A DNA stretch of 64,000 nucleotides, taken from assembly GCA_942492815.1 (NCBI GenBank), contig OW818658.1, forward strand, positions 5,996,284-6,060,283. The letters run 5' to 3'. The DNA is from Candidatus Hydrogenedentales bacterium. GTDB taxonomy: Bacteria; Hydrogenedentota; Hydrogenedentia; Hydrogenedentales; JAEUWI01. Position 1 is the stretch's first letter. Every line of letters begins with the position of its first letter. A model generated the notes under the pieces. It did not search any database. It saw only the letters and a list, made by a program, of their open reading frames with translations, and was not told the origin of the DNA. Positions 4,409 through 58,811 of this stretch are shown here, piece by piece. The position numbers were made by a program, and so were the translations under genes.

Positions 4409-4507
4409 GTACTACAGGGACATCAGAGACGACAGGGACTACAGATTGAGCTTGCGGCGGGCAACATCTATTTCCTGCCGTCTCTGTAGTCTCTGCCGTC
4501 CCTGCAA
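4409..4507. repeat. REPIN-like hairpin element, copy 1: two inverted arrays of 3-4 copies of the 9-mer NNCAGRGAC, separated by a ~25 nt spacer
   Basis: Left arm TACAGGGAC ATCAGAGAC GACAGGGAC TACAG. Right arm is the reverse complement of TGCAGGGAC GGCAGAGAC TACAGAGAC GGCAGG. Intergenic. Confidence 0.85.
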
Positions 4508-4533
4508 ACTCGAGGAACCAGCCTCGGTGTATT

Positions 4534-7500
4534 TTAGCTCCGCCGATAAAGCGGATCGGCACCCAGCGTACCTTTCAGGCTCTCGAGATAGTTTGGGTGC
4601 TCCAAGCGGTATAGCTCTGCCTTGGCCTCTGCGAGGCGTCCGACGATGTCGAGGCGTTCGGCCTCTTCGACGTAGTTGGGCTTCTCCAGGAACGCCGAGA
4701 GGTTCTTGATGTGCCGTTTCCACAGGGCGCAGTCGCGCTCCTGCTTGATTCGGAGGCGCTCATGATACCAGTCACTTTCCATCAGGTACTCGCGGGTGAA
4801 AAGCTTGCGAATTTCCGGGTCCTGCACCGACTTGCCCTCATAGTGACCATGCACCATGATGTGGAGGAGGGCCGCCAGGGGCGGGCAGGCCGCCGTGATG
4901 CTGCCGTCGTCGAAGAAGGCCTGGGCGCAGCGCTGCTGGGCCTCCGTGATATTTTTGATACCGTCCACGTAGGCGTCCATGTCCTGGAGCTCGGGCCGGA
5001 GCATTTCGTCGTTGAACACCGTCGAGGGACTGTCAAACACGCGGCCGAAGTAGTGGCTCAGGAAGGTGCGGGTCATGCGGTAACCCAGGCGGCTCGCCAG
5101 GATCGTCTCGCCCTGGTATTCGAAGTCATCCACTTTCTCGAAGCACCCTTCGCGGAGCAGGTGTGCGGGATCCCGCTCCACTTCGGAAAGGCGGCACCAC
5201 ACTTCGGGAATCAACAGGCTCACGTCGTGGTCCACGCGATACTTCGGGCCGATGTAGCCCGCCGCCGTGGTGAAGCTCTTGTATTCCGTCAGGATGTACG
5301 ACACCAGTGCGTTGTTCAGATCGCTGGTGGGCGTGAGGCAGTTGAAAGGCCCCTTGGTCAGGGCGCCTTCCGATCCCGCACCCGTGGTCGAGGGTGACTT
5401 GCCGGTCAAGCTGGCGATGAAGTCCATGAAGAGCTCCGGGAGCTCCTGGTGGTGAATCGGGTTGTAGACCGCCAGCGGGCGGATCCCGGCCTTCACGTCG
5501 GGCGGGTTATTCCGCCGGCCGGGCAGCACGGCATTCACCGGGTGTAGCACGGGCTTGTCCATGGGCACGCGGCGGTGAAGGCGCGTGGCCACTTCGCCGA
5601 TGTATTTGTCCCGCGGGTTGGTCAGATCGGGGCGCAACTGCAGATAGCGCGGGTTCTTCGACGGCGCGCCATCCACGATGCGCGGGTGTGCCGACGACAC
5701 GAAGTATTCTATATCGTCGCTGTCCGCCACGCGGTTGATCAAATCCTGCATCGGCTGGCTGTAGGCCTGGAAAGTGATCGTGTGCTGCTGTAGCTTCCGG
5801 GCGTCTTCGCGGGTCAGGGGCTCGAAGTTGGAGATGAAGTTCTCGTCTTCCGAGAGGTCCCGCTCCGTCTGTTTGTCGTGGCCCCGGTGGATCGCGTCGT
5901 CGGGACGCTGGAACAGGCGCATCTCGCAATTGTCCACGATCTTGACGCTCGGGTTCTTGTACTCCGGGCAGAGGTGCGAGAGGCTACTGGCCGGTACCAC
6001 CACCGACGCGGAGATATCGTCTTCTTTCTGAATCTTCGCCGCAGGCAGGAAATCCTGGCGCAGCTTGTAGGTGCGCCACGACCCGTCGCTCACCAGGCCC
6101 ACGCGCAGATAGCTCGCCACCAGCTTGCGGCCGTTGAACTTCAGCTCATGGCCCGGCTTGCCGTTGATCACGTCGGCGCTGAAATGGCTGCGCCAGTCCT
6201 CGCCCCACTCGGGGCGGTAGAAGCGCTTGATGATGAAGATCATCGCCTTCACATAGTCCGGGATCGTGTTGAGCCAGGCGTTGTACTCGGGCGTGTAGTC
6301 CTCTTCCGAGGGTGTCAGCAGCCGGATCACCGAACCCAGCGAACGGTTGGCCGCCAGCAGGGGACGGCCCTTGGATACGATGCGCTTGTCCTGGAAGCGA
6401 TCGCTGAAATGATGGGCCATGACCGCCTGAATGCGATTGAGATCTTCCTTGTAATCGGCCACGAAGAAGGGGCCGTAGTGCACGGCATCCAGCAGGGATT
6501 TCGAGATCTCGGACTTGCCGCCGCCCGACACGGTGCAGGGCTTGTGACAGAAGGTGCCTTCCACGCCCGTGCCCACCAGACGCCAGCTCGGGGCGCCGGG
6601 GTGCTTTTCCATGTGGACGTTGTAGCCGTCCGGGTTGAGGTACACGTAGCCCGGCCGCAGGGGGATTTCCTGCTCCACGCCGTCCCGCTCCCAATACACC
6701 CGCTGGGTATTGAGATCGATATGGACGTTCTCCGGCACGTAGATGACGTCCGGGTAAGCCCGGTCGACGGCATAGCCCTCGGGCTGTACCTCCATCAGCT
6801 CGCCATACTTGGCGACCATCTCGTCAAAGCCGTGGCCTTCCTTGGTATAGCGGAAGTCCATGAAGAATTTATCGCCCAGGTTGAAACGGGCGTAGGCCAG
6901 CGCACCGCCCGCGTGCTCTTCTTCGCAGTTGCCGTAGAGGTTCGCCGCATAACTGAGCTGGGTTTTCACTTCCTTCTTGCAGTAACCAAAATAGTTGTCC
7001 GCAATCAGCGTCACCATCACGCCCCGGTCGTCGCGGCAGGCAATCTTGAAGGCGTTGCCGTCGTTGTACAACTCGCCCTCGTCCTTCCAGCACATACCCT
7101 CCTTGCGCTGGCGCTCCGTGGCGTCGTCGAAGTAAGGAAGCCCCAGTTCCTTCTTGCGCAGGTGGGTCAGGTGTGGGGCCAGCACCACGCAGCCCGTGTG
7201 GCCCGTCCAGTGCTCCGCATCGAGGGCGGCATCATTTTCCGCCAGTGTCGGATCGCCCGCGTTGCCGAAAATGGTTTCCACGAAGTCGAGGTTGCTCACC
7301 AGGCTGCCCGGCACGAAGAACCGGGTCTCCATCGTCTTCGCGGGGAGCAGGCCCGGGATCTCGGCCGAGACCAGCGGCCGCATCATGAGCGACACCATCG
7401 TGTGGGCCTGATCGTCCTCTTCAGCGAGGAAGGGCAATTGGAGCAGGTCGCGCGGCGGGTTCAGCGCCGCCACCATCAGATTCCCGAAGACCCGCTTCGG

Positions 7501-8001
7501 CACTTCCTTCTTGTCCAGCGGTACGGGCAGGCCCCCGTCCGCCACGTGGAAGACGCCTTTCGTCGTGCGCCGGTCGCTGCTCGGGTTGTGCAGCACACCT
7601 TGGGCAATCCGGTAGGAGGACACACACCCGTTCTTGAAGCAGTGCCCGTCCACCGGAAGAGAGAGTTCCCGTGCGAGGCCCGGCCGGTCCAGTACGAACG
7701 TGGTGCTCGGCAGGCGCAGCGGCGCGTGGAGCGTCTCTCCGGCCAGGTACTCCTCCAGAAACGCCTGGATGCGCTGGTCGATGGGGCACAGGTGGCCGCG
7801 CAGGAGACGGCTCTTTTCCTTGTAGCTCTGGATGAGCCCGTCGGTGAGGCCGAGGAACTCGGTGCTGGCCTTGGTATAGGTCGGCAGATCCAGGGCGGCC
7901 AGTTTCAGGCTGATATAACGGACCAAATGCCGGCGTTCGTAGGGCTGGGTATGCCCTTCCTGTAGAAAGGGTAATCGGGCGGTCTGGTTACCTTGCGTCA
8001 C
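4534..8001 (-). CDS. large conserved cytoplasmic protein (1155 aa); possibly a PPi-dependent phosphoenolpyruvate carboxykinase family member (tentative)
   Basis: Single uninterrupted 1155-aa ORF with globular, non-repetitive composition. The size matches the ~1150-aa PPi-PEPCK family, but I cannot verify motifs from memory. The antisense 695-aa ORF is rejected. Confidence 0.75.
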   Translation of the reverse strand: MTQGNQTARLPFLQEGHTQPYERRHLVRYISLKLAALDLPTYTKASTEFLGLTDGLIQSYKEKSRLLRGHLCPIDQRIQAFLEEYLAGETLHAPLRLPSTTFVLDRPGLARELSLPVDGHCFKNGCVSSYRIAQGVLHNPSSDRRTTKGVFHVADGGLPVPLDKKEVPKRVFGNLMVAALNPPRDLLQLPFLAEEDDQAHTMVSLMMRPLVSAEIPGLLPAKTMETRFFVPGSLVSNLDFVETIFGNAGDPTLAENDAALDAEHWTGHTGCVVLAPHLTHLRKKELGLPYFDDATERQRKEGMCWKDEGELYNDGNAFKIACRDDRGVMVTLIADNYFGYCKKEVKTQLSYAANLYGNCEEEHAGGALAYARFNLGDKFFMDFRYTKEGHGFDEMVAKYGELMEVQPEGYAVDRAYPDVIYVPENVHIDLNTQRVYWERDGVEQEIPLRPGYVYLNPDGYNVHMEKHPGAPSWRLVGTGVEGTFCHKPCTVSGGGKSEISKSLLDAVHYGPFFVADYKEDLNRIQAVMAHHFSDRFQDKRIVSKGRPLLAANRSLGSVIRLLTPSEEDYTPEYNAWLNTIPDYVKAMIFIIKRFYRPEWGEDWRSHFSADVINGKPGHELKFNGRKLVASYLRVGLVSDGSWRTYKLRQDFLPAAKIQKEDDISASVVVPASSLSHLCPEYKNPSVKIVDNCEMRLFQRPDDAIHRGHDKQTERDLSEDENFISNFEPLTREDARKLQQHTITFQAYSQPMQDLINRVADSDDIEYFVSSAHPRIVDGAPSKNPRYLQLRPDLTNPRDKYIGEVATRLHRRVPMDKPVLHPVNAVLPGRRNNPPDVKAGIRPLAVYNPIHHQELPELFMDFIASLTGKSPSTTGAGSEGALTKGPFNCLTPTSDLNNALVSYILTEYKSFTTAAGYIGPKYRVDHDVSLLIPEVWCRLSEVERDPAHLLREGCFEKVDDFEYQGETILASRLGYRMTRTFLSHYFGRVFDSPSTVFNDEMLRPELQDMDAYVDGIKNITEAQQRCAQAFFDDGSITAACPPLAALLHIMVHGHYEGKSVQDPEIRKLFTREYLMESDWYHERLRIKQERDCALWKRHIKNLSAFLEKPNYVEEAERLDIVGRLAEAKAELYRLEHPNYLESLKGTLGADPLYRRS

Positions 8002-8246
8002 GGTGAGTGTACTCCCCTGTCGTGTTAAGGGTTGTGCGGTGGTATGCGCGTTGGCGCTCGGGCCCCGGTTGCCGGCTATTGGGTGACCGACCGGGGTTAA
8101 AACAGCGGAAAAAGCCCGTCTGCCTGTGCCCGACCACAGGGATGGAGATGTCCCGGCAATCCTGTATCCTGAGGATCAGGAAGCTTCCCTATTCTAAAGG
8201 ATCGCGGGGGTCATAATCGACCCCGCGATCCCCGATTCAATGAAAA

Positions 8247-8284
8247 CGCGGACGCACCCGGCTGGGTGCGCCCGCGCAAAAAAA
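8247..8284 (-). terminator. Rho-independent terminator for the 8299-8889 gene
   Basis: On the minus strand: GC-rich hairpin CGCGGGCGCACCC-AGCC-GGGTGCGTCCGCG followed by a T-run. Confidence 0.6.
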
Positions 8285-8298
8285 CTTAACTTCGGCGA

Positions 8299-8889
8299 TC
8301 AGCGGCCCGGAGGCAGCAGGTGGCCGTAGCTCATCGTGGTCGGAAAGCGCGCGTCGCCGCTGGCCGGGATGAAGGTCTGGTAGTACACGAAGGTGCCCTG
8401 CACGTCCGTCGGGTCGCCCGTCCACGAGATGGTGAGAGAGCCGTTAAATTTGCCGTCATTCAACTGTCCCCCGAGGGCGCGGACGCTGTTTACGCCCGTG
8501 CGCGGACGATCCGGAACGAGCGTCGCGGTGGCGCTTTCCTGGCCGCCAGGCGTGGCATCGGGATCGCGGCGCGCCGGACGGAATGCGACCGACGAGTAGG
8601 GAGGAATCACGAAGGAGTTGTTCTGATCCGCCAGGGTGCTGTTGTTGGCGGGTCCGAGGGGCACACCGGTCTGACTGAAGTACTCGATCGAGCAGTTCAG
8701 GTTATAGCCTACGTTACTCTTGAGGTAAACAATACCCGTCACCCCGCTGATAACACCGGGAATGTCATTGGCCACGGGCGCATTGTCGACAAACCAGGGG
8801 ACACTCAGGGAACTTGCGAAAGCTACCGTGGTGCCGGCCAGGGCGGCAACCAGAACACCTATCTTTCTCATCTTCTGCCTTCTCCTCAT
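8299..8889 (-). CDS. secreted hypothetical protein (signal peptide MRKIGVLVAALAGTTVAFASS)
   Basis: ORF with an N-terminal signal peptide. No recognizable domain. Start chosen at MRRRQKMRK. Confidence 0.55.
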   Translation of the reverse strand: MRRRQKMRKIGVLVAALAGTTVAFASSLSVPWFVDNAPVANDIPGVISGVTGIVYLKSNVGYNLNCSIEYFSQTGVPLGPANNSTLADQNNSFVIPPYSSVAFRPARRDPDATPGGQESATATLVPDRPRTGVNSVRALGGQLNDGKFNGSLTISWTGDPTDVQGTFVYYQTFIPASGDARFPTTMSYGHLLPPGR

Positions 8890-9185
8890 TGGGCTGAATC
8901 CCTGTGTACCATGACCGCAGAATTCACCCGCGCTGGTTGTTGGATTGCGATGCGCCATGCATCACCGACTACGCTGTCTCCCGAAAGCCGCAGCCAGCAC
9001 TCGTTCTGAGTTCTTGCCCGACTCCCTCCAATTTCACTGTGCCCCAGTATATCGGATATCTCCCAAACTTCCAAGGGCTTTTTCTGGTACGGCCTGTCGA
9101 TATTCTCATTTTTCATAGTCACCCCGAAGGGAGGCCTGATTCTACCCGGTTGTAACGGCCGGGCGACCTTTCGCATAATGCCCCC

Positions 9186-10820
9186 ATGCAGCCCATCCAA
9201 CGACGCGAATGGTGTTTCCCTCTGGCCTTGGCCGTCGCTTTCGCGGTATTCGGCTCCCTGCCCTACCTCTATGCAATGCGCGCGGAAGGCCCCACCGAAA
9301 CCTTCATGGGCTTCGTTGGCCGGGGCACCCCCGGCGCCAACAGCTATTTCGCCTTTTCGCGCCAGGTGGCCGAAGGTAGTGCCTTCACGACCAATTTGTA
9401 TAGCCCCCACGCCCCTTCCCGGGCCTACTTCAATCCCGAATGGTGGGTCATCGGGGCGGCAGCCCGGGCCACGGGCCTCTCCCTGACCACCCTATTCCAT
9501 GTGGAGCGCGTGATCGCGGCGTTCGCGTTTCTCCTGGCCGCTTACTACCTCTGTGCCGTCGTGTTGGCCACGTCGCGACACCGCCAACTCGCGCTCGCCC
9601 TGATCGCCTTCGGCGGCGGCTTCGGCTGGCTGGTGGAGAGCCTGAACGCCGTCTTTCACGGGAACCTGGCCGTACCTGTGGATACCCAGGGGGTTACCGT
9701 CTTCGCCTATCTCGTGAACAAGCCACACTTCATTCGCGCAGCGGCCTGCGCGGCCCTGCAATATGCCTGGCTCATCCGTGGCGCACAATCGGGCCGTTGG
9801 GGCTTCTTCTGCGCCGCCGGCTTGGCCGCCTCGGCCCACAGCCTCATCCGGCCCTACCAGATTCCCGAGTCCTGCCTCGTGCTACTCCTTTATGTCGTCG
9901 CCCGTTCACTCGAGAATCCAGGCGTACTCCGTCAAGCGATTGGCCAAGCGGGATGGACCGTCCTCGGACATCTCCCGGTGATCGGCTGGCACACCTGGAT
10001 CCTGCTGGACAATCCGCTGGGCCTCGGCCCCATGCTGGCCTGGCAGCCCATGCTTCTCCTGCCCCAAATGCTCTGGCTGGGGCTGCCCTTCTGCGCCGTC
10101 CTTGTTTATGCGGGTCTTCGGTGCATTCGGGGGCACTGGAGCCCAGAACTATCCATCCCCGTGCTATGGCTGGCCGCCGCCATGCTCCTGTTGCAGGCCC
10201 ACCCCTACTATCCCTGGGGCGTCGAAAGCTATTTCCCCTGGGTACTCGCACCGCCCCTGCTCTTCGTGAAGCACATCGTTCCCACTGCGGCGGACTGGCT
10301 CAAATCACGCCGCGCCGCAACGACCCTGCGGCCCCTCGCCGTGGTGCTGATGGGCGTCCTGGTGTTGCCCGGCAATGCCCTCAACTACGCTCGCTTCTTC
10401 ACCACCCTTCACGAGCCCGTGGCCCCCTGGCGCTACTACCTGGCCGACGACCTGCTGCAGGGACTGGACTGGCTGAAGAAAAACGCCGCGCCGGAGTCGG
10501 TGGTTCTCGCGAGCCACGACACGAGCCAATTCATCCCGCGCCTGGCGAACCTTCGGGTCGTTTCTGGTCAGGACGTGCTCACGGATCGCTACCGCGAGGC
10601 GAATGCCTCCGTCCTCCGCTTCTTCGTTACGCCCGGCGATGACGCTTTCAAGCAGGGGTTCTGCCGGGAACAGTCGGTGGCGTGGATGGTCCTCGGGCCT
10701 TTCGAAAAAGCCTTCGCGCTCCTGGATCCCGCCGACCACCCGTGGATGCGCCCGGAGTTCACCGATGGCGACGTCTCGATTTACCGCGTGGACCTGCCCC
10801 CTCAGAACGGCGGTAAATAA
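9186..10820 (+). CDS. polytopic integral membrane protein (~12 TM) with a C-terminal soluble domain; GT-C-fold glycosyltransferase-like (uncertain)
   Basis: 544 aa with many hydrophobic helices and a C-terminal ~130 aa hydrophilic domain. No DD/DE motif confirmed. Confidence 0.5.
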   Translation: MQPIQRREWCFPLALAVAFAVFGSLPYLYAMRAEGPTETFMGFVGRGTPGANSYFAFSRQVAEGSAFTTNLYSPHAPSRAYFNPEWWVIGAAARATGLSLTTLFHVERVIAAFAFLLAAYYLCAVVLATSRHRQLALALIAFGGGFGWLVESLNAVFHGNLAVPVDTQGVTVFAYLVNKPHFIRAAACAALQYAWLIRGAQSGRWGFFCAAGLAASAHSLIRPYQIPESCLVLLLYVVARSLENPGVLRQAIGQAGWTVLGHLPVIGWHTWILLDNPLGLGPMLAWQPMLLLPQMLWLGLPFCAVLVYAGLRCIRGHWSPELSIPVLWLAAAMLLLQAHPYYPWGVESYFPWVLAPPLLFVKHIVPTAADWLKSRRAATTLRPLAVVLMGVLVLPGNALNYARFFTTLHEPVAPWRYYLADDLLQGLDWLKKNAAPESVVLASHDTSQFIPRLANLRVVSGQDVLTDRYREANASVLRFFVTPGDDAFKQGFCREQSVAWMVLGPFEKAFALLDPADHPWMRPEFTDGDVSIYRVDLPPQNGGK

Positions 10821-10878
10821 GAAAGGCGCTGTCGCCCGGAGCGGCAACAGCGCCTTGAAAAGCTTCGGGATGGGTTAC

Positions 10879-27774: not shown

Positions 27775-27798
27775 CTATCAACTGTCAACTATCAACTG
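27770..27798. repeat. tandem heptamers CAACTAT/CAACTGT x4, overlapping the stop codon of the SpoU-family gene
   Basis: GTCAACTATCAACTGTCAACTATCAACTG. The minus-strand TGA stop of the 27785-28315 gene lies in the first heptamer. Confidence 0.85.
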
Positions 27799-28315
27799 CT
27801 TTCCTCTTCCCCAAGATATCATAGAGCACGATCCCGAAAGCATTGGCCACGTTGATGCTGTTCTTGTAGCCGTGCATGGGGATCTTCACCACGTGGTCAC
27901 AGCGGGCGATGTTGCGCTCGTGAATGCCGTTGACCTCGTTGCCGAAGACGATGGCCACGGGGCCGGGCCACTGAAAGTCGTGCATGTCTTCCGCGCCTTC
28001 GGCCACTTCGATGGCGACGATGGGAATGCCCTGTTCCTTCAGGGCGGCGAGGCAGTCCTTGGTGCGCTCGTAGTAGGTCCAGGGGACATAGGCGAAGGCG
28101 CCGAGGGCCGTCTTTTCCAGTTTTTTGTGGGGCGGGTGGGCCGACATGCCGCACAGGTGGATATGCGCCACGGCGCCCGCGTCGCAGGTACGAAAGATGG
28201 AGCCCACGTTGAAGGCGCTCCGAAGATTGTCGAGCACCACGTGGACCGGGTTGCGTGGGATGGGCGCGAGGTTGGCAATGTCGATATCGGCGTAATGGGG
28301 TTCCAGTTCGGCCAT
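27785..28315 (-). CDS. SpoU/TrmH-family RNA 2'-O-methyltransferase (SPOUT)
   Basis: 176 aa. Motifs VVLDNLRSAFNVGSIFRTCDAGAV, VAIVFGNEVNGI and NSINVANAFGIVLY are typical SPOUT motifs. Confidence 0.8.
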   Translation of the reverse strand: MAELEPHYADIDIANLAPIPRNPVHVVLDNLRSAFNVGSIFRTCDAGAVAHIHLCGMSAHPPHKKLEKTALGAFAYVPWTYYERTKDCLAALKEQGIPIVAIEVAEGAEDMHDFQWPGPVAIVFGNEVNGIHERNIARCDHVVKIPMHGYKNSINVANAFGIVLYDILGKRKAVDS

Positions 28316-28349: not shown

Positions 28350-28433
28350 TGTTACAGGGACAGCAGGGACGACAGGAATAAAACAGCCTGGGTCCCTGCC
28401 TGCCGTCTCTGCTGTCCCTGCTGTCCCTGCGGC
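28350..28433. repeat. REPIN-like NNCAGRGAC inverted-array hairpin, copy 2
   Basis: TTACAGGGACAGCAGGGACGACAGG ... CCTGCCGTCTCTGCTGTCCCTGCTGTCCCTGCGG. Confidence 0.85.
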
Positions 28434-28516
28434 TTCGCGCCAGTCACTCGCCACCTCCAAATAAAAACCGGCCTTCCCGCAGTGGAGAAGGCCGGTCGTA
28501 CATTCAAGAAATGGGC

Positions 28517-35892: not shown

Positions 35893-35935
35893 GTTTTAGT
35901 TTACCATAGACAATTGTCACTTGTCAGATCGACTC

Positions 35936-44290: not shown

Positions 44291-44413
44291 TTGACAATGT
44301 ACAATTGACAATGAAAAGACTGAGCAACCTGCCAGCCAGAGATTTTCCGCCCGATTCTCATTGTCAATTGTCAATTGTCAATTGTCAATTGTCAATTGTC
44401 AATTGTCCATTGT
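44289..44413. repeat. heptamer repeat element: AATTGACAATGTACAATTGACAATG, then a 45-nt spacer, then (CAATTGT)x7 in inverted orientation. The tandem part overlaps the 3' end of the TolC-family gene.
   Basis: Seen directly. The tandem heptamers encode the C-terminal ...NNGQLTIDN of the 44385-45803 gene. Confidence 0.9.
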
Positions 44414-46746: not shown

Positions 46747-47817
46747 CTATTTTGTGTGCCCCAGGATCGCCTCTTCCTTGAAACTCGTCAGCATCACCGT
46801 GGCGCGCGAATCCGTCGTATAGACCACGTGGATTGTGCCGTCCTTCGCCTGGATCGCCATGGGATAGGCAAAGGTATTGCCCGGGGCGACGATATCGCGG
46901 CGATGGGGCCACGTCTTGTCGTTGTCCTCGGAAATCGCGATGGTCAGGGGAATCCGCTCGTTCATGTTGTCGTTGTAGGCCAGCAGCAGATGCCCGTTCT
47001 GCAGCTTGATGAAACCTACGGCCGCATTGGGGTTCGGAAACTGGGAATCTTTACCGCGTTTCCACGTCTGGCCGCCGTCATGCGATTCCGAGCGCACCAG
47101 ATAGCGGTTCGTGCTTGGTTCGTAGCCGCCACCCACGCGGCAATAAGCGATCAGGCAATCGTCCGTGATCTGCACCGCCTCGGGCTGGAGATTGCCCTTC
47201 TTCGACTTGATCCGCTTCGTCGGCGTCCACGTGCGCGTCTTCGGATCGTGCCGGAGGAAGTAGGACGTCGTGTCCCGACCGATCACCTCCCGGTCGCTGC
47301 CCGTCTCGTGGTAGACCGGCAACAGGTACTCGCCGTTGTTCAACACAATCGGACGGCCCCGCACCATCGTGCCCATTTCAAAACCCAGATTCATCGAATC
47401 GGACCACGTATGGCCACCGTCCTCGGAGATCTTGGCCTTGATGAGCGTCTCCGACCAGGTGGCGCCGAAACGCTGCACGTAAAACAGCCACACCAGACCA
47501 TCCGGCGCCTGCCACACGATGCCGTTACCCTCGCCCTGGAAAGGCGTGTCCGCCAGCAACTGCGGCTCCGACCAGGCCGTCTGCCCCGGCGAACGGCGGA
47601 TGCCATAGACCTTTGATTCGTCCTCATACTCGCCGCCGCCACCATAAAAAGTGATGTACAGATCGCCGTTGTCCAACTCCGTGATCGCGGCGGGGTGCTT
47701 ATAGGCCCCCGGCTTCTCGGTGCCGATCACCTTCTCCACGATGATGTCATCCGCCGCGAGGACGGGGACCGAAAAAAAGGCCAGCGCCAGCGCGCAGGAC
47801 AGGGAATTACGCCACAT
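46747..47817 (-). CDS. BNR-repeat sialidase/neuraminidase-like glycosyl hydrolase, secreted (paralog 1)
   Basis: BNR Asp-box motifs SEDGGHTW and SHDGGQTW. Signal peptide. ~65% identical to the adjacent paralog. Confidence 0.75.
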   Translation of the reverse strand: MWRNSLSCALALAFFSVPVLAADDIIVEKVIGTEKPGAYKHPAAITELDNGDLYITFYGGGGEYEDESKVYGIRRSPGQTAWSEPQLLADTPFQGEGNGIVWQAPDGLVWLFYVQRFGATWSETLIKAKISEDGGHTWSDSMNLGFEMGTMVRGRPIVLNNGEYLLPVYHETGSDREVIGRDTTSYFLRHDPKTRTWTPTKRIKSKKGNLQPEAVQITDDCLIAYCRVGGGYEPSTNRYLVRSESHDGGQTWKRGKDSQFPNPNAAVGFIKLQNGHLLLAYNDNMNERIPLTIAISEDNDKTWPHRRDIVAPGNTFAYPMAIQAKDGTIHVVYTTDSRATVMLTSFKEEAILGHTK

Positions 47818-47930
47818 GAAAGATACTCCTTGTTGGGGTCGATTGGACGTCATAGACACCGGGGTAGGATAAAGGGTGGCCGGGGCGAAACTCAATTAAA
47901 ACTCGAATTCACCACGTCTTCCCGCCGCGC

Positions 47931-49004
47931 CTACTTCGTGTGCCCGAGTATCGCCTCTTCCTTGAAGCTCACCAGGATCACCGTGTCCCGAATACCCGTC
48001 GTGCAAATCACGTGGATGGTTCCATCCTTCGCCTGGATCGCCATGGGATAGCCGAAGGTGTTGTCCGTTCCGCTCGTGGCGAGATCGCGGCGGTGGGGCC
48101 AGGTCTGGTCGTTGTCCTCGGAGATGGCCGCAGTCAGGGGTGTGCGATAGTTCATGCTGTCATTGAAGACCAGCAGCAGCTTGCCGCTCTGCAGCTTGAT
48201 GAAGCTCACCGCCGAGTTCGGGTTGGGAAACGGGGAGTTCTTGCCCCGGCTCCACGTCTCGCCGCCGTCGCGCGATTCGGACCGGAGGATGTAGCGCGAC
48301 GTGCTCGGCTCGAAATCGCCGCCGGGGCGGACATAGGCGATCAGGTGCTCGTCCGAAATCTGCACCGGCTCGGGCTGGAGATTGCCGTGTCGCGAACGGA
48401 TACGACCGGTCGGGGTCCACGTGCGCGTCTTCGGGTTGTGGCGCAGGAAGTAGGATCGTGTGTCGGGAAAGGTCCGGTCGATGTCGCTGCCCGTTTCATG
48501 ATAGACCGGAAGGAGGTAGTCGCCGTTGTTCAGCACGATGGGCAGGCCGCGGCACATGGTGCCCAGTTCGAAGTTCAGCACCATCGAGTCGGACCACGTC
48601 TCGCCGCTGTCCTCCGAGATCTTCGCGAGGGTCCGCGATTCCGACCACGTGTCGCCGTAGCGCTGCACGTAGAAGAGCCACAGCAGGCCGTCCGGCGCTT
48701 GCCAGGCGATGCCATTCCCCTCGCCGAGGAAGGGCGTGTCCGCCAGGAGTTTCGGCTCGGACCACGCGGTCTCCCCCGCTTTCCGGCGAATGCCCCAAAC
48801 CTTTGAATCCTCCTCATACTCGCCACCGCCACCGTAATAGGTCGCAAAGAGATCGCCATTGGTCAATTGCGTAATCGCAGCGGGGTGCTTGTACTTCCCG
48901 GGATGCTCCTTGCCAATGACGTGCTCGATAAGGATGTCCTCCGCGGCGAAGGCGGTGAACGAAAAAAGGAAGGCCATTGCGCAAAGCGTGGATGTGTACC
49001 GCAT
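47931..49004 (-). CDS. BNR-repeat sialidase/neuraminidase-like glycosyl hydrolase, secreted (paralog 2)
   Basis: BNR motifs SEDSGETW and SRDGGETW. Tandem duplicate of the 46747-47817 gene. Confidence 0.75.
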   Translation of the reverse strand: MRYTSTLCAMAFLFSFTAFAAEDILIEHVIGKEHPGKYKHPAAITQLTNGDLFATYYGGGGEYEEDSKVWGIRRKAGETAWSEPKLLADTPFLGEGNGIAWQAPDGLLWLFYVQRYGDTWSESRTLAKISEDSGETWSDSMVLNFELGTMCRGLPIVLNNGDYLLPVYHETGSDIDRTFPDTRSYFLRHNPKTRTWTPTGRIRSRHGNLQPEPVQISDEHLIAYVRPGGDFEPSTSRYILRSESRDGGETWSRGKNSPFPNPNSAVSFIKLQSGKLLLVFNDSMNYRTPLTAAISEDNDQTWPHRRDLATSGTDNTFGYPMAIQAKDGTIHVICTTGIRDTVILVSFKEEAILGHTK

Positions 49005-49200
49005 AGGTAGAGCTCCGTTGAAGTGCGGGTTCGACGTCATCTTGCTGGAAGAATATCGGCTGGCCGCGACGGATCGCAACAGGCGGCACGACTGCTGGGG
49101 AGCGACTGACTTCGTGGTGCCGAGGTACGACTTCCGGATGCGCGAATCGAATCTGGAAAATGCCCGGCAATCAACCGCCGGCCGCTGATGGTATGTTCTC

Positions 49201-50109: not shown

Positions 50110-50867
50110 TACATGCTCATCTTCTTGAAGACGCGACGGGGGATATTGCGGATGATCAGCATGATGTAGCGCCAGAAGAAGGGCACATAGGCCTCGTCCT
50201 TACCGGTGCTTACCGCTTTGAAAATGGCCTTGCCCGCCTGGGCCGGCGTGGCAACGAGGGGGCCGGGGAGCGGCAGGCCGAAGGTCATTTTGGTGTCCAC
50301 AAAGCCGGGCTGGATCGTGGTCACGGTCACGTTGGACTTGGCCAGCCGCACGCGGAGCCCTTCGAGGTAGCAGGTCAGCCCCGCCTTCGTCGCACCGTAA
50401 ATGTAGTTCGTCTGTTTGCCGCGATCGCCCGCGACGGACGAAAGGACGCCCAGGAAACCGGAACCGCGATGCTCAAAGACCGCCGCAAAGGCTTCCAGAA
50501 TGGAGATGGCGCTGGTGAGGTTGACCGAGATCATCTTCTCCACTTCGGCCATGTGTTTCTGAGCTTTTTCCTGCTCGGCCATATAGCCATAGCCCAGCAC
50601 GATGCCCGTGGGCTTGGTACCGATGGCGGCCTCGCAGGCTTCCACGAATTTGCCATGGGAGGGGAGGTCTTCGGCGTCGAAATGCAGGGCATGGCAGGGC
50701 ACGCCGTGGCGCACGGCGATATCCGCCGCGAGAATGGCGTTCTCTTCGTCATCCCGCGCGGCGAGCACGAGGGTGTAGCCCGCCGCGGCAAAAGCCTGGG
50801 CCGTGGCCCGGGTGATGCCCGAGGTGGATCCGAGAATGACGGCGCTGGGCCGGAAGTCGGTGCTCAT
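50109..50867 (-). CDS. dprE2: decaprenylphosphoryl-2-keto-beta-D-erythro-pentose reductase DprE2 ortholog (SDR)
   Basis: 252 aa. LGSTSGI Rossmann motif and YGATKAG. The C-terminal ...FWRYIMLIIRNIPRRVFKKM closely parallels Mtb Rv3791 ...FRYVMMVLRHIPRSIFRKL. Confidence 0.8.
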   Translation of the reverse strand: MSTDFRPSAVILGSTSGITRATAQAFAAAGYTLVLAARDDEENAILAADIAVRHGVPCHALHFDAEDLPSHGKFVEACEAAIGTKPTGIVLGYGYMAEQEKAQKHMAEVEKMISVNLTSAISILEAFAAVFEHRGSGFLGVLSSVAGDRGKQTNYIYGATKAGLTCYLEGLRVRLAKSNVTVTTIQPGFVDTKMTFGLPLPGPLVATPAQAGKAIFKAVSTGKDEAYVPFFWRYIMLIIRNIPRRVFKKMSM

Positions 50868-50926: not shown

Positions 50927-51000
50927 CAGAGACAACAGGGACGTCAGCGACAGCAGGGTACGCAATTCCTGCTGTCGCTGCTGTCTCTGACGTCCCTGAA
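50927..51000. repeat. REPIN-like NNCAGRGAC inverted-array hairpin, copy 3 (between dprE2 and dprE1)
   Basis: CAGAGACAACAGGGACGTCAGCGACAGCAGGG ... CCTGCTGTCGCTGCTGTCTCTGACGTCCCTGAA. Confidence 0.85.
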
Positions 51001-51033
51001 AAACAGCGGGGTAAGTGTTGGGCATATTGAGCA

Positions 51034-52377
51034 TCACACCAGCCCCAATCGCCGTGCCATGTTGGAGGACAGCACGCCTTTGGGATCGAGGCGCTTCTGT
51101 ATGGCTTTGAACTCGTCCAGGCGCGGGTACATGGCCGCGATGGTCTCCGGACTCGCCACGGCGTCTTTCGCCAGGTAGAGACGTCCATCGTGATCGAGAA
51201 GGATCCGCTCCAGCTCGTGGAGGAAGGGCGTGAGGCCACGGTGGTTTGGCAGATCAAGCGTGAGGGTGTAACCCTTCATGGGATGGGACAACAGGCCGGG
51301 ATTCTGCTCGCCGAAGGTCTTCAAGACGGCGAGGAACGAAGCGCGGCGCGAATCGGCGAGTCGCTGGAGAATGCGGATGAGGCCCTGCTTGCTCTCGTAG
51401 GGCAGTGTGGCCTGAAACTGGGCAAAGCCCTTGCGCCCATAGAGCCGGTTCCAGTGGTGGATGGCGTCCAGGGGATAGAAATACTTGTCGTAGTGCACCA
51501 GCTTGCCGATGGTCGTGGGGTGCGCGGCGTAGAAGACCTTGTTGAAGGCCGTCACGCTCAGGGGATTCAGCACAAACTGGGGGCAGTTGAAGGGCACGTT
51601 CTTCGGGAATTCCCGCTTCAGAGCGAAGGGTGTATTCGCGCGGGCCGGATCGAGCTGGGAAAGCCTCGCGTGATTGCCCTGCATAAGTACGGAGCGGCCC
51701 AGACTCGCGCCCCGCGCCAGGCAATCGACCCAGGCCACGGAATATTTGTGGGCGCCGTCGGTCGCCGCCATGGCATCCAGCGCGTGATCCAAATCGCGGC
51801 ACTGGGTGTAATCCGTCACGATCCAGGAGCTTTCCACGGGCTGAAGCCGCACGCGGGCCGTGAGGATGAACCCCGTGAGTCCCACACCGCCCGCCGTGGC
51901 CCAGAAGACATCGGCGTTCTCGGTTTTCGAGCAATTCAGGATCTCGCCGGTAGGCAGGAGCAGCGTGAAGGATTCCACGAATTCGCAGAAGGTCCCGTCG
52001 CAGTGATGGTTCTTGCCGTGGACGTCATTGGCAATGGCGCCGCCGATGGTCACAAATTTGGTGCCGGGCGTGACCGGGACGAAATAGCCGCGCGGCACAA
52101 AGACGTCGAGAATGTCGGCCAGGCTGACGCCAGCCTCGCACTCGAGTACGCCGGTTTCCTCGTCGAAGCTGATCATGCGGTCGAGACGAGTGGTGTTGAC
52201 CACGCCACCGCCACCGTTGACGGCGGTATCGCCGTAGCTTCGGCCCAGTCCTCGGGCGATGATCGAAGAGGAAGCGTGACCCCCGATGAGGTCGTTCAGG
52301 GTGCGGCGTTTTTCCGGGCGAAAGACGTCACACTTCTCGGGATCCAGGCCGCCCCAGCCGCTGAGGGACTGGTGCAT
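51034..52377 (-). CDS. dprE1: decaprenylphosphoryl-beta-D-ribose 2'-oxidase DprE1 ortholog (FAD-dependent)
   Basis: Motifs IARGLGRSYGD, VTIGGAIANDVHGKNHH, FWATAGGVGLTG and C-terminal YPRLDEFKAIQKRLDPKGVLSSNMARRLGL all parallel Mtb Rv3790. Start chosen at MHQSLSGWGG to match the DprE1 N-terminus. Confidence 0.85.
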   Translation of the reverse strand: MHQSLSGWGGLDPEKCDVFRPEKRRTLNDLIGGHASSSIIARGLGRSYGDTAVNGGGGVVNTTRLDRMISFDEETGVLECEAGVSLADILDVFVPRGYFVPVTPGTKFVTIGGAIANDVHGKNHHCDGTFCEFVESFTLLLPTGEILNCSKTENADVFWATAGGVGLTGFILTARVRLQPVESSWIVTDYTQCRDLDHALDAMAATDGAHKYSVAWVDCLARGASLGRSVLMQGNHARLSQLDPARANTPFALKREFPKNVPFNCPQFVLNPLSVTAFNKVFYAAHPTTIGKLVHYDKYFYPLDAIHHWNRLYGRKGFAQFQATLPYESKQGLIRILQRLADSRRASFLAVLKTFGEQNPGLLSHPMKGYTLTLDLPNHRGLTPFLHELERILLDHDGRLYLAKDAVASPETIAAMYPRLDEFKAIQKRLDPKGVLSSNMARRLGLV

Positions 52378-52642
52378 GGAGGAATCGGCCACGGGTATTC
52401 TCCTGGGTTGGTGTGAAGGTCTCGGCTGTGAAGTGTACTCGGGTGTATATACCCGCCGCAGGCGAAAGTATAACGCCATCGGTCGGATACAAACAAGTCC
52501 GACTGGCGCTATCTGCTTTGTTGACAGGGAATTAGAGGGAAAAACGCATGAAAAAAATGGGGCCCATACGACCTATACGACCCATGTAAGCCATCGCCGG
52601 TGGCCTGCTTCCCGGTCCAGCGCCGCCCCCGGCGATCCACTT

Positions 52643-54488: not shown

Positions 54489-54631
54489 AAACGCTCCCGA
54501 TGAACGGCACGATACGTAGAAGGAAGAAAACGGCGAAATGCGAGACGCCATTCTAGCGCACAATCGTGCGAGGCTGTCAACCGGCGCGGCGACCCCGAGG
54601 CGGTGTGTTTGGCGCGAGTCGACTTCCTTCA

Positions 54632-54735
54632 CTGCAGGGACGAGAGCGACATCAGGGACGGCAGGCTGCGATGGCCGGAATTTGCTGTCGTTTGCAGAGT
54701 TCCTGCTGTCTCTGCCGTCCCTGACGTCCCTGCAA
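54632..54735. repeat. REPIN-like NNCAGRGAC inverted-array hairpin, copy 4 (divergent promoter region between the two epimerase genes)
   Basis: CTGCAGGGACGAGAGCGACATCAGGGACGGCAGG ... CCTGCTGTCTCTGCCGTCCCTGACGTCCCTGCAA. Confidence 0.85.
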
Positions 54736-54800
54736 CCATCGGCCAGATGCTACGGCTGCTTTGCATTGCCGGTCTCTCGTACCGTTCCCGGAGCCCGCCC

Positions 54801-55865: not shown

Positions 55866-56016
55866 CGGGGGGCGCAGTTTACACGGTCAGATTACACAGT
55901 TTACGCCCTATCCTCTTTTCGGCATGGGAGTTAGACCGAGAATAGGATTGACCGTTTGGGCGGTCGGTGGTATCATGAACATATCTGAAACCCTTGAAAT
56001 ATCGGGAGATGCAAGC

Positions 56017-57045: not shown

Positions 57046-57072
57046 CCCGTTATCCACATAGCACGTAAATCT

Positions 57073-57108
57073 CGCGGCAGGTCTTCGGACCTGCCGCGTT
57101 TCTTTTGG
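57073..57108 (+). terminator. Rho-independent terminator of the pilin-like gene
   Basis: CGCGGCAGGTC-TTCG-GACCTGCCGCG followed by TTTCTTTT. Confidence 0.7.
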
Positions 57109-57109
57109 G

Positions 57110-57812
57110 CCCGGGGGGGGACCGTCCTGCACGAACAAAATCGCCTTCCGCAAGTGCCGCGTTGCAACAGGAAGTACCCTCCAACCGAGGGAGATCAACC
57201 ACCCGTGCGGGACCGTCCCCCGCTTTAAAAGCGCGGGACGGTCCCGAACGCGCAGAGGTCTTGCGGCGCGCTGCCGTGATTCGCACGACCCACGGACCTC
57301 ACCCGTGACACCGTTGCCCGGACGTTCAGGACGGTCCCGTCGTAACGCGGGGACTGTCCTGCACGAACAAAATCGCCTTCCGCAAATGCCGCGTTGCAAC
57401 AAAAAGCACCCTCCAACCGAGGGAGATCAACCACGCGTGCGGGACCGTCCCCCGTTTTAAAAGCGCGGGACGGTCCCGAACGCACAGGGGGCTGCGGCAG
57501 GCTTCCGTGGTCCGTATGACCTGCGGACCTCACCCGTGACCCCGGTGCCCGGACGTTCAGGACGGTCCCGTCGTAACGCGGGGACTGTCCTGCACGAACA
57601 AAATCGCCTTCCGCAAATGCCGCGTTGCAACAAAAAGCACCCTCCAACCGAGGGAGATCAACCACGCGTGCGGGACCGTCCCCCGTTTTAAAAGCGCGGG
57701 ACGGTCCCGAACGCATAGTGTGCTTCGTCCAACCGGGTTTCACCGATCGAACCACACTACCTATCATAAATCAAGAGCCCCTGCGTTCAGGACGGTCCCG
57801 TCGTTGCGCTAT
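57110..57812. repeat. direct tandem repeat, ~240-bp unit x ~2.6 copies, each carrying several GGGAC(C/T)GTCCC palindromes (related to the MITE-like terminal inverted repeats at 37.7 kb)
   Basis: Unit boundaries at ~57113, 57353 and 57593. Motifs CGCGGGACGGTCCCGAACGC, CGTTCAGGACGGTCCCGTCG and GGGGACTGTCCTGCACGAAC recur. Confidence 0.9.
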
Positions 57813-57851
57813 ACTACGCCCCCGATGTCTCTCCACTAGAAAGCCTTTCCC

Positions 57852-58679
57852 ATGTTTCATGACTTCATCGAGCCCGGCGTTCCGGTCGTGCTCTTCTGGA
57901 TCTTCGTCTCCGTCGCCATCATCATCCAGGGCATCAGCAAATCCGGCTTTGCGGGCGGTGCGGGGATCCTGTCACTGCCGCTGATGATGCTGGTGATGCC
58001 CGTCGACAAAGTCGCGGCGACGCTGCTGCCCCTGCTGATCCTGTGCGACTTCAACGCGATCTACCACCACCGGCACAACAAGGACTGGACACAGGTGATG
58101 CGGATCTTTGTGCCGTCGTGCCTCGGCATCGTGCTGGGAGCGCTGGTGTGGTGGAAGATCGGGCGCGAGGGTGTGGAGTTTTACAGCCTCTTGATCAAGC
58201 GCATGGTGGGCGTGATCGCGATTATCTTCGGACTCTACATCGCCGCGAAGGACCAATCCATGGCGTGGGTGGCGCACCACAAGGCGGGGCGGAAGACGGC
58301 GGTGATCGTGGGTATCGTGGCCGGCTTCACGTCCACCATTGCCCACGCTGCCGGGCCCATCGTGAGCCTGTATATATACTCTCAGGGCTTCAACAAGACC
58401 CTCTTCGTGGGAACGGTGGCCTGGACCTTCACGCTGATCAACCTGACCAAGCTGCCCTTTTATGCCTGGGCCGGACTCGTGGATACGAGCGTACTCTGGT
58501 TCGACGCATGCCTCGTGGCGCTGATCCCGGTGGGCTCGTGGCTCGGCCACTGGATGCACCACCGGGTGTCGAAATGGTGGTTCAGCCGGATCATCATGGT
58601 GCTGACCCTGGTGGCGGGCGTGCAGTTGTTGTTTGACGTGCAGGTGATCCAGTGGGCGCTGGAACTGCTGGTGCGCTAA
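57852..58679 (+). CDS. TauE/SafE-family (DUF81) sulfite-exporter-like membrane protein
   Basis: 275 aa, ~8 TM. Duplicated four-TM halves with GxGGG-like motifs (FAGGAGILSLPLM, AHAAGPIVSLYI). Confidence 0.7.
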   Translation: MFHDFIEPGVPVVLFWIFVSVAIIIQGISKSGFAGGAGILSLPLMMLVMPVDKVAATLLPLLILCDFNAIYHHRHNKDWTQVMRIFVPSCLGIVLGALVWWKIGREGVEFYSLLIKRMVGVIAIIFGLYIAAKDQSMAWVAHHKAGRKTAVIVGIVAGFTSTIAHAAGPIVSLYIYSQGFNKTLFVGTVAWTFTLINLTKLPFYAWAGLVDTSVLWFDACLVALIPVGSWLGHWMHHRVSKWWFSRIIMVLTLVAGVQLLFDVQVIQWALELLVR

Positions 58680-58722
58680 GCGGGACAGACCGCAACTCAT
58701 ACTCCGGTGATTTTTCGCTGAT

Positions 58723-58811
58723 TTCAGGGACAACAGGGACTTCAGAGACGGCAGTAAAAGAAGCTCTTAACGATCTCACTGCTGTCCCTGTTGTCCCTGC
58801 TGTCTCTGCAA
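58723..58811. repeat. REPIN-like NNCAGRGAC inverted-array hairpin, copy 5
   Basis: TTCAGGGACAACAGGGACTTCAGAGACGGCAG ... CACTGCTGTCCCTGTTGTCCCTGCTGTCTCTGCAA. Confidence 0.85.

Follow-up and report, generated by a model that had tools for sequence, protein, structure and literature searches.

Inverted pairs of short tandem arrays, each built from the heptamer CAGRGAC repeated at a 9-nt pitch, form a widespread family of intergenic elements that extends across several bacterial phyla. Five copies (E1 to E5, Table 1) are found in the 64-kb stretch of DNA analysed here (the window), which belongs to an uncultured Hydrogenedentota bacterium, and all five are intergenic. The first-pass annotation of the window had allowed that the design might be confined to this region; the same design was recovered in public genome and metagenome scans, which together yielded at least 157 paired elements (at least 26 from the genome scan and at least 126 from the metagenome scan). 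The elements listed come from Thermoanaerobaculia and other Acidobacteriota, Hydrogenedentota, Alistipes and many soil and lake metagenomes, and the same 7-nt core is thus reused in at least three phyla. A related MAG, bin.359, carries copies on three further contigs (L031, L054 and L099), and no paired element was found among 2.9 million viral contigs. The family is an addition to a known but unexplained kind of element, the dispersed inverted pairs of short tandem repeats, which includes the GGGAATC repeats of Xanthomonas and the paired sites of Geobacter.

A relaxed array finder run on the window returned exactly the five elements that had been annotated, and no array outside them. The arms in the window consist of two to three clean units followed by a degenerate inner unit, usually (A/G)GCAGG, such that the three to four tandem 9-mers per arm originally described are reached when the degenerate unit is counted, and two to three when it is not. 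The inverted design was likewise described correctly, whilst its dimensions (a spacer of 15-35 nt and a total of about 90 bp) are revised here to a spacer of 4-39 nt, depending on how the degenerate inner unit is counted, and a total length of 72-98 nt. The five copies have spacers that bear no relation to each other. In E1, the G-rich array reads CAGGGAC AT CAGAGAC GA CAGGGAC, then TA CAG, and in E4 the middle unit of the G-rich array is degenerate (GAGAGCGAC). The two-unit pattern CAGRGACNNCAGRGAC, allowing at most one mismatch, has 18 matches in the window against 0.11 expected, all within the five elements. For the single heptamer, 48 copies were counted where 16 would be expected; this excess is made up of the elements and of one copy in each unit of a 289-bp repeat, and isolated copies are at chance level. 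Of 17 distances between successive perfect cores in the window, 15 are 9 nt; when the metagenome loci are included, the core-to-core distance is 9 nt in 508 of 554 cases and 18 nt in a further 30. E1, E2 and E5 lie between co-directional genes, and the annotated placement of the other two at gene boundaries also holds, E3 being intercistronic within a dprE1-dprE2 operon and E4 lying between divergent epimerase genes. A second motif class, ATTGTCA, is present in the window as well.

Table 1. Paired-array elements in the window, measured from outermost core to outermost core, with their gene context and the predicted folding energy of each strand
Element	Extent	First array	Second array	Spacer or loop	Gene context	Fold, kcal/mol (z)
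E1	4415-4504	G-rich, 4415-4439	inverted, 4480-4504	31 nt	29 nt past stop of 1155-aa PEPCK_PPi-like gene (4534-8001, - strand); 26 nt ahead of ATG of GH5 gene (3174-4388, - strand)	-44.7 on + strand (-4.3); -48.7 on - strand (-5.7)
E2	28355-28429	G-rich, 28355-28370, plus degenerate third unit	inverted, 28405-28429		between canonical intrinsic terminator (28466-28497, - strand) of SurA-like gene and SpoU/TrmH-like gene (ATG at 28315, - strand)	-44.9; -50.0
E3	50927-50998	50927-50951	50974-50998	short loop	dprE1-like (51037-52479) / dprE2-like (50112-50867), both - strand	-48.5 (-7.7); -45.7 (-6.8)
E4	54635-54732	G-rich, 54635-54659	inverted, 54699-54732, 4 units, innermost degenerate	39 nt	NAD-dependent epimerase/dehydratase genes, transcribed divergently	-63.4; -53.1
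E5	58725-58808	58725-58749	58784-58808	25-34 nt	46 nt past stop of TauE/SafE gene (57852-58679, + strand); 90 nt upstream of GNAT acetyltransferase gene (58898-59425, + strand)	-46.3 (-6.4); -51.8 (-8.0)

Across the family, the number of units per arm has a sharp mode at four (174 of 314 arms), the spacing between arms ranges from 1 to 63 nt (median 22 nt), and the G-rich array precedes the C-rich array without exception (162:0, and 26:0 in a scan whose pattern left the pairing unspecified). The percentage frequencies of the core over 157 elements are C83 A98 G95 G84 G97 A98 C95, values that are partly inflated because the elements were detected through their cores, and the positions N1 and N2 are nearly uninformative. 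The first-pass annotation had argued from the conserved CAGRGAC and its free dinucleotide that a motif is recognized and that the elements are not plain hairpins, and the larger set bears this out: the core is conserved at 83-98% and NN is nearly random, the in-register match of NN between arms is 39%, a shuffled control giving 30%, and at the R/Y position, which does not covary, the match is 75% against 74% in the control. Adjacent units share an identical NN in 14.6% of cases versus 11.3% at random, and this near-random level means that adjacent units are not fresh duplicates. The pairwise identity between copies (median 76%, 99th percentile 83%) is at the level given by the cores alone. The reuse of one core in several phyla, the fixed orientation, and cores that are kept in place whilst the pairing bases drift freely together point to a reader of sequence rather than to a structure.

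The explanation that we tentatively favour is that the elements are a REP/BIME-like intergenic cis family whose heptamers would be read by a putative sequence-specific factor and which also have the potential to fold into hairpins. Each element would offer two head-to-head arrays of the core c-A-G-r-G-A-C, spaced 9 nt apart throughout with two free bases between neighbouring cores, to a putative reader that is most simply pictured as a protein binding cooperatively, with one protomer per repeat. Reading of the cores would hold heptamer, pitch and orientation constant whilst NN, spacer and unit order drift. Given the inversion of the two arrays, a transcript that crosses the element in either direction would form a long hairpin of 7-bp helices interrupted by 2x2 internal loops, and at its usual place, just past a stop codon or between cistrons, this hairpin may act as a REP-like barrier that would protect the upstream mRNA or modulate read-through, and not as a classical terminator. 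That a reader exists, what it would be and whether the DNA or the RNA form would matter to it is something that we infer from the pattern described above, in which the conserved motif without covariation, the fixed pitch and the fixed orientation are indirect pointers towards protein reading of an iteron- or operator-like kind. Several observations count against this explanation: sites are not stably conserved between relatives, the differences in the E1 orthologue of L246 fall in cores (both described below), the core frequencies are partly inflated by the mode of detection, about 20% of the classifiable elements lie between divergent genes, where there is no 3' end to protect, and the existence of a MITE-like subfamily in Thermoanaerobaculia implies that at least some members have spread by transposition.

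A parallel for reading of this kind is offered by the operators of ribbon-helix-helix proteins, such as omega of pSM19035, which acts on 7-bp heptads, and MetJ, which acts on 8-bp metboxes. These arrays have two to ten units per site and are bound cooperatively, with one dimer per unit, and unit spacing matters above spacer sequence. The present arrays resemble them in their contiguous units of 7-9 bp, in direct and inverted orientation; unlike the present arrays, those operators are located at a few specific promoters of their own regulon or plasmid and are not dispersed over the chromosome at gene 3' ends. We know of no ribbon-helix-helix protein that has been linked to the present arrays.

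A possible but doubtful alternative is that the RNA hairpin is the whole function, with REP-like stem-loops that would stall ribosomes at termination, dampen read-through or stabilize the mRNA upstream; the heptamer would then be a convenient stem module, and its repetition would give tolerance to register shifts. The five window elements form very stable hairpins, with predicted energies of -45 to -63 kcal/mol for either strand (z between -4.3 and -8.0), and the mean MFE over 157 elements is about -62 kcal/mol. Paired arrays are far commoner than single ones in the relevant phyla, the spacer is short (median 22 nt), the median distance to the facing stop codon is about 12 nt (from crude gene calls), co-directional and convergent contexts account for 51 of 64 classifiable cases, and both E3 and E1 are intercistronic. 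However, a hairpin alone gives no reason for the same heptamer in three phyla or for the strict order of G-rich and C-rich arrays, and the variable positions have nearly no compensatory pairing. Folding does not favour sense over antisense RNA or the reverse (41:39, p=0.65), leaving the sense strand without a G-U advantage; single arms of three to nine units exist, and the copies between divergent genes are as awkward here as above. No match to Rfam 15 at the gathering score was found for the window elements or 16 related loci, and relaxed E-values gave just sub-threshold eukaryotic miRNA-precursor hairpins.

Comparison of orthologous loci bears on both selection and mobility. The clearest case is E3, where none of 42 invariant core bases differs from the orthologue in L120, compared with 6 of 12 NN positions, 7 of 12 loop positions and 29 of 94 flanking positions (31%), two 9-mers having been swapped; the chance of this by our arithmetic is 0.69^42, about 2e-7, which points to purifying selection on the cores at this one locus as judged from the alignment. 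In L115/L116 (90% protein identity) E3 is a decayed relic, and in L118/L119 (79% protein identity) it is absent. E1 has an orthologue in L246-L249 that is identical at 87 of 90 positions, with a flank beside it at about 70% in the comparison with L246, where all three differences fall in cores and none in NN; in L245 and L250 the E1 site holds a different TIR element of about 300 nt that ends in the same heptamer. E2 is absent at the orthologous site in L241 (bin.359, SpoU 97% identical) and in L242 (86%). At E4, homology with the close relative L120 breaks off at a promoter-like TTGACA...TAGAAT, which is 55 nt away from the element. Turnover of the elements is fast, and the unstable conservation of the sites is more in line with an element that is dispensable or selfish than with an important site of the host.

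This turnover lends some weight to the proposal, which we nevertheless consider unlikely, that the elements are non-autonomous mobile DNA, their arrays serving as multiple transposase or recombinase sites, an arrangement found at Tn7 or Mu ends and in foldback elements, and the motif being kept since intact copies alone are mobilized and not through any host need. The fixed inward orientation of the arrays matches that of transposon ends, presence and absence vary among close relatives, and both the relic in L115 and the TIR element at the E1 site are in keeping with mobility. In Thermoanaerobaculia, a conserved inverted terminal motif of about 19-23 nt, (CTA)GGAGCCTGCGCGGCAGAAA, lies next to 21 of 155 elements, with 87-93% identity between copies from different loci, which differ by a 9-nt unit. 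This subfamily lies inside a TIR-bounded MITE-like repeat, the motif of which ends in CTAG, and a target-site duplication is indistinguishable from the terminal repeat. Spread across phyla is, moreover, typical of insertion-sequence families. Against mobility, target-site duplications were found neither in the window nor elsewhere, and the window copies have no flanking direct repeats in common and no shared flank motif; nor do the Hydrogenedentota copies have a common terminal motif. The five unrelated spacers and an inter-copy identity that reflects the cores alone also count against it, no gene is enclosed by a long-range pair of arrays in any of the loci retrieved, and the cores of E3 have been kept in place amid flank divergence, for which selection for transmission alone is inadequate.

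The first-pass annotation had likened the elements to REPINs mobilized by a RAYT, and on this point its interpretation, partly supported as a whole, is largely refuted. REP and BIME sequences are extragenic palindromes of high copy number, located between cistrons and at the 3' ends of genes, which form hairpins in transcripts and act as docking sites for proteins; each REP is an imperfect palindrome of 20-40 nt with near-identical copies within a genome, and REPINs have a fixed spacing and a cognate RAYT flanked by the same REP (PMC3116915, PMC3333891). The present family is alike in its palindromes at gene ends and between cistrons, its transcript hairpins and its appearance and disappearance between related genomes. 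A RAYT (Pfam Y1_Tnp) is encoded at 1504-2130, the copy density and intergenic placement are REP-like, and the repeat that flanks the RAYT has the pentamer GGGAC in common with the nonamer core, which is a weak resemblance. The defining features of REPs and REPINs are all absent, however: the arms are tandem direct repeats without an internal palindrome and not short imperfect palindromes with a conserved 5' tag, inter-arm spacing is variable, there is no cluster of near-identical copies, and the RAYT is flanked by the unrelated 289-bp tandem repeat, which has one chance heptamer per unit and no nonamer array, as the annotation had itself remarked in calling the two kinds of repeat dissimilar. 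RAYT-driven REPIN identity was rejected on these grounds and is very improbable.

Little probability attaches, too, to the idea that the units form G-quadruplexes in competition with the hairpin, a proposal made earlier for GGGNATC repeats in Xanthomonas and Nostoc (PMC4692102). GGG is present in most units, four units per arm is the mode, as in that study, and a run of four or more GGG units is present in 116 of 314 arms; yet the middle G is one of the core positions that vary most (84% G, 15% A), conservation reaches 95-98% at the 'loop' bases A, A and C, and four GGG tracts occur in none of the 10 window arms. Least credible of all are ordinary intrinsic terminators, possibly bidirectional and repetitive by chance, a reading that the annotation had named as one that would refute its own: the hairpins are GC-rich and close to gene ends and a U-rich tail (five or more T within the 9 nt that follow the stem) is found at 69 of 306 sides, but 77% of sides lack one, none of the five window elements was called in a terminator scan or has a U tract, E2 adjoins a separate canonical terminator, E3 lies inside an operon, and stems of about 30 bp in elements of about 90 nt are far above terminator size.

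The paired-repeat kind to which the family belongs was described in Xanthomonas as inverted pairs of tandem repeats of the GGGAATC heptamer, with 70-75 cases per genome of two convergent arrays on opposite strands; these arrays are mostly between co-directional genes and near stop codons, their unit number varies among related genomes, and their orthologous conservation between two species is reported as 83% (Rehm et al. 2015, PMC4692102). The present elements have three to four units of 9 nt per arm, convergent arrays on opposite strands, a variable distance between them and dispersed intergenic copies. With the Xanthomonas arrays they share a short unit that contains G, a dispersed and largely intergenic location, convergent pairs, co-directional and stop-codon placement and a unit number that varies between relatives. 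They differ in a unit of 9 nt with seven conserved and two free positions, in a G tract that is not the best-conserved part, with window arms that cannot form a canonical G-quadruplex, in pairing that is the rule here and the minority in Xanthomonas, in orthologous conservation below the Xanthomonas value and in a core that is found in several phyla.

In Geobacter metallireducens, classes 1-3 of 'predicted global regulator binding sites' are opposite-strand pairs, each of three to five tandem repeats of 7-9 nt (e.g. TCTCCGTS[Y], GTTGCTYN and MTYCTGA), with tens of copies per genome and a variable pair distance; one copy lies between proB and proA, protein binding (IHF/HU) was proposed by the authors, whose description is confined to supplementary alignments, and the distance of the insertion sequences ISGme8 and ISGme9 from class 1 sites is constant (Aklujkar et al. 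2009, PMC2700814). The likeness lies in tandem-repeat pairs on opposite strands, in the proB/proA copy, which parallels E3 between dprE1 and dprE2, and in the presence of several motif classes per genome, of which the window has its second in ATTGTCA. The motifs themselves differ, and the window is without insertion sequences at a fixed distance.

For years, paired inverted arrays of short repeats have been on record in Xanthomonas, Geobacter and cyanobacteria without an account of their role, and the present family places three constraints on any explanation: a core that crosses phyla, the use of just one of two orientations that could give a hairpin, and cores that are kept while the pairing bases drift. 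A bolder version of the favoured explanation, which we regard as rather improbable, is that CAGRGAC at a 9-nt pitch is the recognition code of an undescribed and widely distributed DNA- or RNA-binding factor, and that head-to-head four-unit arrays mark gene boundaries in Hydrogenedentota, Acidobacteriota and Rikenellaceae. If true, this would amount to a cross-phylum system that organizes the nucleoid or transcript ends, and the paired repeats of Xanthomonas and Geobacter would be lineage-specific counterparts with other motifs. The sequence (NNCAGGGAC)4 provides a defined bait for finding the putative reader in lineages that are almost entirely uncultured. The elements also break assemblies and mark content differences among close relatives, which makes them relevant to the curation of MAGs and to synteny analysis; two contigs, L159 and L220, end inside an element.

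Five intergenic elements in the window (E1 to E5) carry, on the + strand, two to four tandem nonamers of the form NN-CAG(G/A)GAC, followed by a spacer and the reverse-complement array, as the first-pass annotation had described them, and a tolerant array finder run on the window returned exactly these five. The window has 18 matches to two tandem units where shuffles predict 0.11, and 18/18 lie inside E1-E5; isolated heptamers (CAGRGAC, the core of the unit) occur at chance frequency, with the exception of one copy per unit of an unrelated 289-bp repeat. Differences at the NN positions limit the complementarity between the two arms of an element, each a single tandem array, to 79-81%. Folding of either strand nonetheless gave hairpins of -44.7 to -63.4 kcal/mol (z -4.3 to -8.0), and no shuffled sequence was as stable. 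The proteins encoded on the flanks have their closest homologues in Hydrogenedentota MAGs, including members of the order Hydrogenedentiales, the family-level bin JAEUWI01 and MAG GCA_041859365.1 (bin.359).

Locations of the paired-array elements and of other repeats and rearrangements; coordinates are those of the window unless a contig or locus used for comparison (L-number) is named
Feature	Location	Strand	Context or description
E1	4415-4504		between PEPCK_PPi-like gene and GH5 gene, both - strand; 29 nt past one stop, 26 nt ahead of next start
E2	28355-28429		between canonical intrinsic terminator (28466-28497) and SpoU/TrmH start
E3	50927-50998		intercistronic, dprE1-like and dprE2-like genes
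E4	54635-54732		between divergent epimerase genes
E5	58725-58808		between TauE and GNAT genes, both + strand
19-nt direct repeat bracketing E1	4366-4384; 4521-4539		84% identical; one copy in first GH5 codons, other across upstream gene's stop codon
~300-nt dispersed element	L245 8411-8713; L250 about 9667-9973		orthologous to window about 4415-4533
~300-nt dispersed element, further copy	L241 about 8478-8692
~190-nt MITE-like repeat	L058 about 7390-7570; L196 about 4220-4400; L159/L220		Thermoanaerobaculum-like contigs
RAYT gene	1504-2130	-	Pfam Y1_Tnp; mid tandem array of 289-bp unit
289-bp unit array	501-1486; 2171-3203		about 7.5 copies in all
ATTGTCA arrays	35906-35926; 44292-44312 with 44360-44408; 59520-59547		second short tandem repeat class
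Apparently inverted segment	49216-63423		~14 kb; holds E3, E4 and E5
231-bp tandem unit	57117-57715		2.6 copies, 94% matches; start GGGGACTGTCC, end GGGACCGTCCCCCG
Perfect tandem repeats around SpoU 3' end	27712-27739 and 27768-27798		ATGGGTCGA x3.1 and CTGTCAACTATCAA x2.2
Two adjoining 382-aa ORFs	46747-47895; 47931-49079	-	both match SpoU-adjacent gene of L242

The design is not confined to this region. A scan of one genome per species, using a pattern of three tandem units, returned at least 114 loci, and at least 26 of these have the head-to-head design, in Thermoanaerobaculia/Thermoanaerobaculum, other Acidobacteriota, Hydrogenedentota (including bin.359) and Alistipes. Long arrays on one strand account for many matches, in Streptomyces among other taxa; they were taken as coding repeats from their form only and set aside, and have no relation to the paired intergenic elements. 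When metagenomes were scanned with the paired pattern, at least 120 loci were found, mostly in soil and lake samples among the matches listed, and the same pattern had no match in 2.9 million viral contigs, where no phage association was seen. An Rfam search of the elements matched no family, and searching the text of the literature for the repeat sequence turned up no paper.

The anatomy of the element was defined using the 157 paired elements among the matches listed in the genome and metagenome scans. Arms of three, four, five and six units number 41, 174, 71 and 15, four-unit arms being the commonest, and the spacer is 1-63 nt long (median 22), giving a median total length of 92 nt. Among the elements listed, the distance from core to core is 9 nt in 508/554 cases and 18 nt in 30. 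The core is composed of C 83%, A 98%, G 95%, G 84% (A 15%), G 97%, A 98% and C 95%, percentages that are inflated to some degree since the elements were found through their cores, whilst 50% of units have A at N1, and N2 shows almost no preference. The NN bases of the two arms match in register at 39% of positions, compared with 30% for randomly paired arms (z about 6), and the R/Y position matches at 75% compared with 74% (z about 1), so pairing at the variable positions is not maintained. NN types are common to both arms of one element in 21.7% of cases, against 11.3% by chance, and are shared by adjacent units in 14.6%, hardly above that chance level; neighbouring units being hardly more alike than random, fresh slippage was rejected as the origin of the arrays, and the figures point to arms of common origin that have been blurred by register shifts. 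Among the matches listed, the G-rich array (CAGRGAC) precedes the C-rich array in 162 pairs and follows it in 0, and the order is 26:0 within the genome scan alone, where the pattern is blind to pairing.

A hairpin requirement alone would permit both array orders, which counts against the first of two main rival explanations, that the elements function purely as RNA hairpins. Structure alone hardly explains a heptamer that does not vary, a strict pitch, the preference for four units, the single inward orientation and the lack of compensatory change; these five features point to a reader, and we lean, tentatively, towards a putative sequence-specific factor that would read the heptamer cores of the arrays. 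The iteron-like protein-recognition logic of the first-pass annotation is in this respect reasonable, though unproven. Selection on a sense-strand RNA was also looked for, and no asymmetry was seen between the strands of the elements. The hairpin is nevertheless real, and the positions after stop codons or between cistrons make a role in the transcribed element probable, one that may be REP-like; gene-context statistics are approximate, as the crude ORF and GC3 caller mislabelled some sides (for example through spurious antisense ORFs at E1 and E2).

Relatives of the window were located through homologues of its proteins. E3 is kept in one of them (L120; 92.5% nucleotide identity), where 42/42 invariant core bases are unchanged, whilst half of the NN bases, 7/12 of the loop and 31% of the flanks have changed and two neighbouring 9-mers have exchanged places. 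The E3 site holds a decayed relic in a relative at 90% protein identity and nothing in a relative at 79%. Upstream of SpoU, neither bin.359 (97% protein identity) nor an 86% relative has E2; the latter still has the terminator. In four contigs of a 94% relative, E1 matches at 87/90 positions beside a flank of ~70% identity; in two other relatives (95% and 90%; L245 and L250) exactly its site is occupied by a different element of ~300 nt, with inverted termini AGGGACTGACGCGGAC...GTCCGCGTCAGTCCCTG, that stops at the boundary of E1 and has the same terminal heptamer. From these comparisons at the E1-E3 sites, the elements turn over quickly, yet the cores are under constraint wherever an element is kept. 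The ~300-nt element with these termini is absent from the window, and in L245 the stop codon of the upstream gene comes from its first bases.

In Thermoanaerobaculia, a conserved motif, (CTA)GGAGCCTGCGCGGCAGAAA, lies inverted beside 21/155 listed elements, on one flank or on both; the acidobacterial terminal motif GGAGCCTGCGCGGCAGAAA does not occur in the window. A ~190-nt unit between (CTA)GGAGCCTGCGCGGCAGAAA termini is common to three or four loci at 87-93% identity, the copies differing by one 9-nt unit and NN changes. The nonamer palindrome forms the inner part of this repeat, whose boundaries are CTAGGAGCCTGCGCGGCAGAAAA...TTTTCTGCCGCGCAGGCTCCTAG; the CTAG ends are reminiscent of the TA target of IS630-family elements. 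Two contigs, L159 and L220, end within the repeat, which therefore breaks assemblies. At least some arrays thus travel in a MITE-like carrier; the window copies do not. Such a carrier, together with the fast turnover between relatives, would suit the other main rival, a selfish element in which the arrays serve as ends bound by a transposase, but the conservation in place of the E3 cores and the unrelated spacers among copies speak against it.

A MITE identity was rejected for this lineage on the lack of target-site duplications and of common termini: direct-repeat searches around E1-E5 found none in common, and no shared flanking or terminal motif was found in the Hydrogenedentota copies. The 19-nt direct repeat at E1 is probably not a target-site duplication, since it is not conserved in the orthologue L246, where it is much weaker. 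As for an autonomous partner, no array pair encloses a gene in any locus retrieved. The suggestion that the elements are REPINs mobilised by a RAYT transposase was wrong, in that the arms do not consist of REP palindromes, the spacing varies and the copies share cores alone (median identity 76%, 99th percentile 83%); its companion remark that they are unlike the repeats around the RAYT in the window was borne out, that gene sitting in the unrelated 289-bp repeat. Classical terminators were rejected because a U-rich tail is found on only 23% of sides of the listed elements, and E1-E5, which have no U tract and of which a terminator scan calls none, are not ordinary degenerate terminators. G-quadruplex elements were rejected for the window: four GGG tracts do not occur in any of its arms, and the middle G ranks with the most variable positions of the core.

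This kind of element is already known. The GGGAATC repeats of Xanthomonas show a preference for four units and form 70-75 convergent pairs per genome, between co-directional genes (PMC4692102), and classes 1-3 of the 'global regulator binding sites' of Geobacter metallireducens consist of paired sets of 3-5 tandem 7-9-mers, one set on each strand and the distance between them variable, with one pair located between proB and proA (PMC2700814). Both precedents have the architecture seen here, and the function of neither is established (PMC4692102, PMC2700814). The CAGRGAC family belongs with them as a further member, having in common the inverted pairs of short tandem arrays, but is set apart by its 7+2 unit and by one core reused across phyla; the question of function becomes more tractable through this shared core and the rule of orientation.

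Other repeats and rearrangements were observed nearby. Relatives L245 and L246 have one 289-bp unit between the GH5 and cNMP-binding genes, with no RAYT there, so the window shows local amplification and RAYT insertion; the 231-bp unit resembles the 289-bp unit in style. The heptamer ATTGTCA, which gives TTGACA on the opposite strand, has 18 two-unit matches in the window against 0.15 expected (<=2 mismatches). At 44.3 kb, two inverted copies lie ~50 nt from an array of 7.7 copies that they face, head-to-head like E1-E5 with another motif; the array at 59.5 kb adjoins a TATAAT-like box that immediately precedes an ATG. The inverted segment was recognised relative to L115, L118 and L120, in which a match to window 63424-64000 begins immediately after the end of the UbiA gene (window 49216). 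Finally, the pair of 382-aa ORFs looks like a tandem gene duplication.
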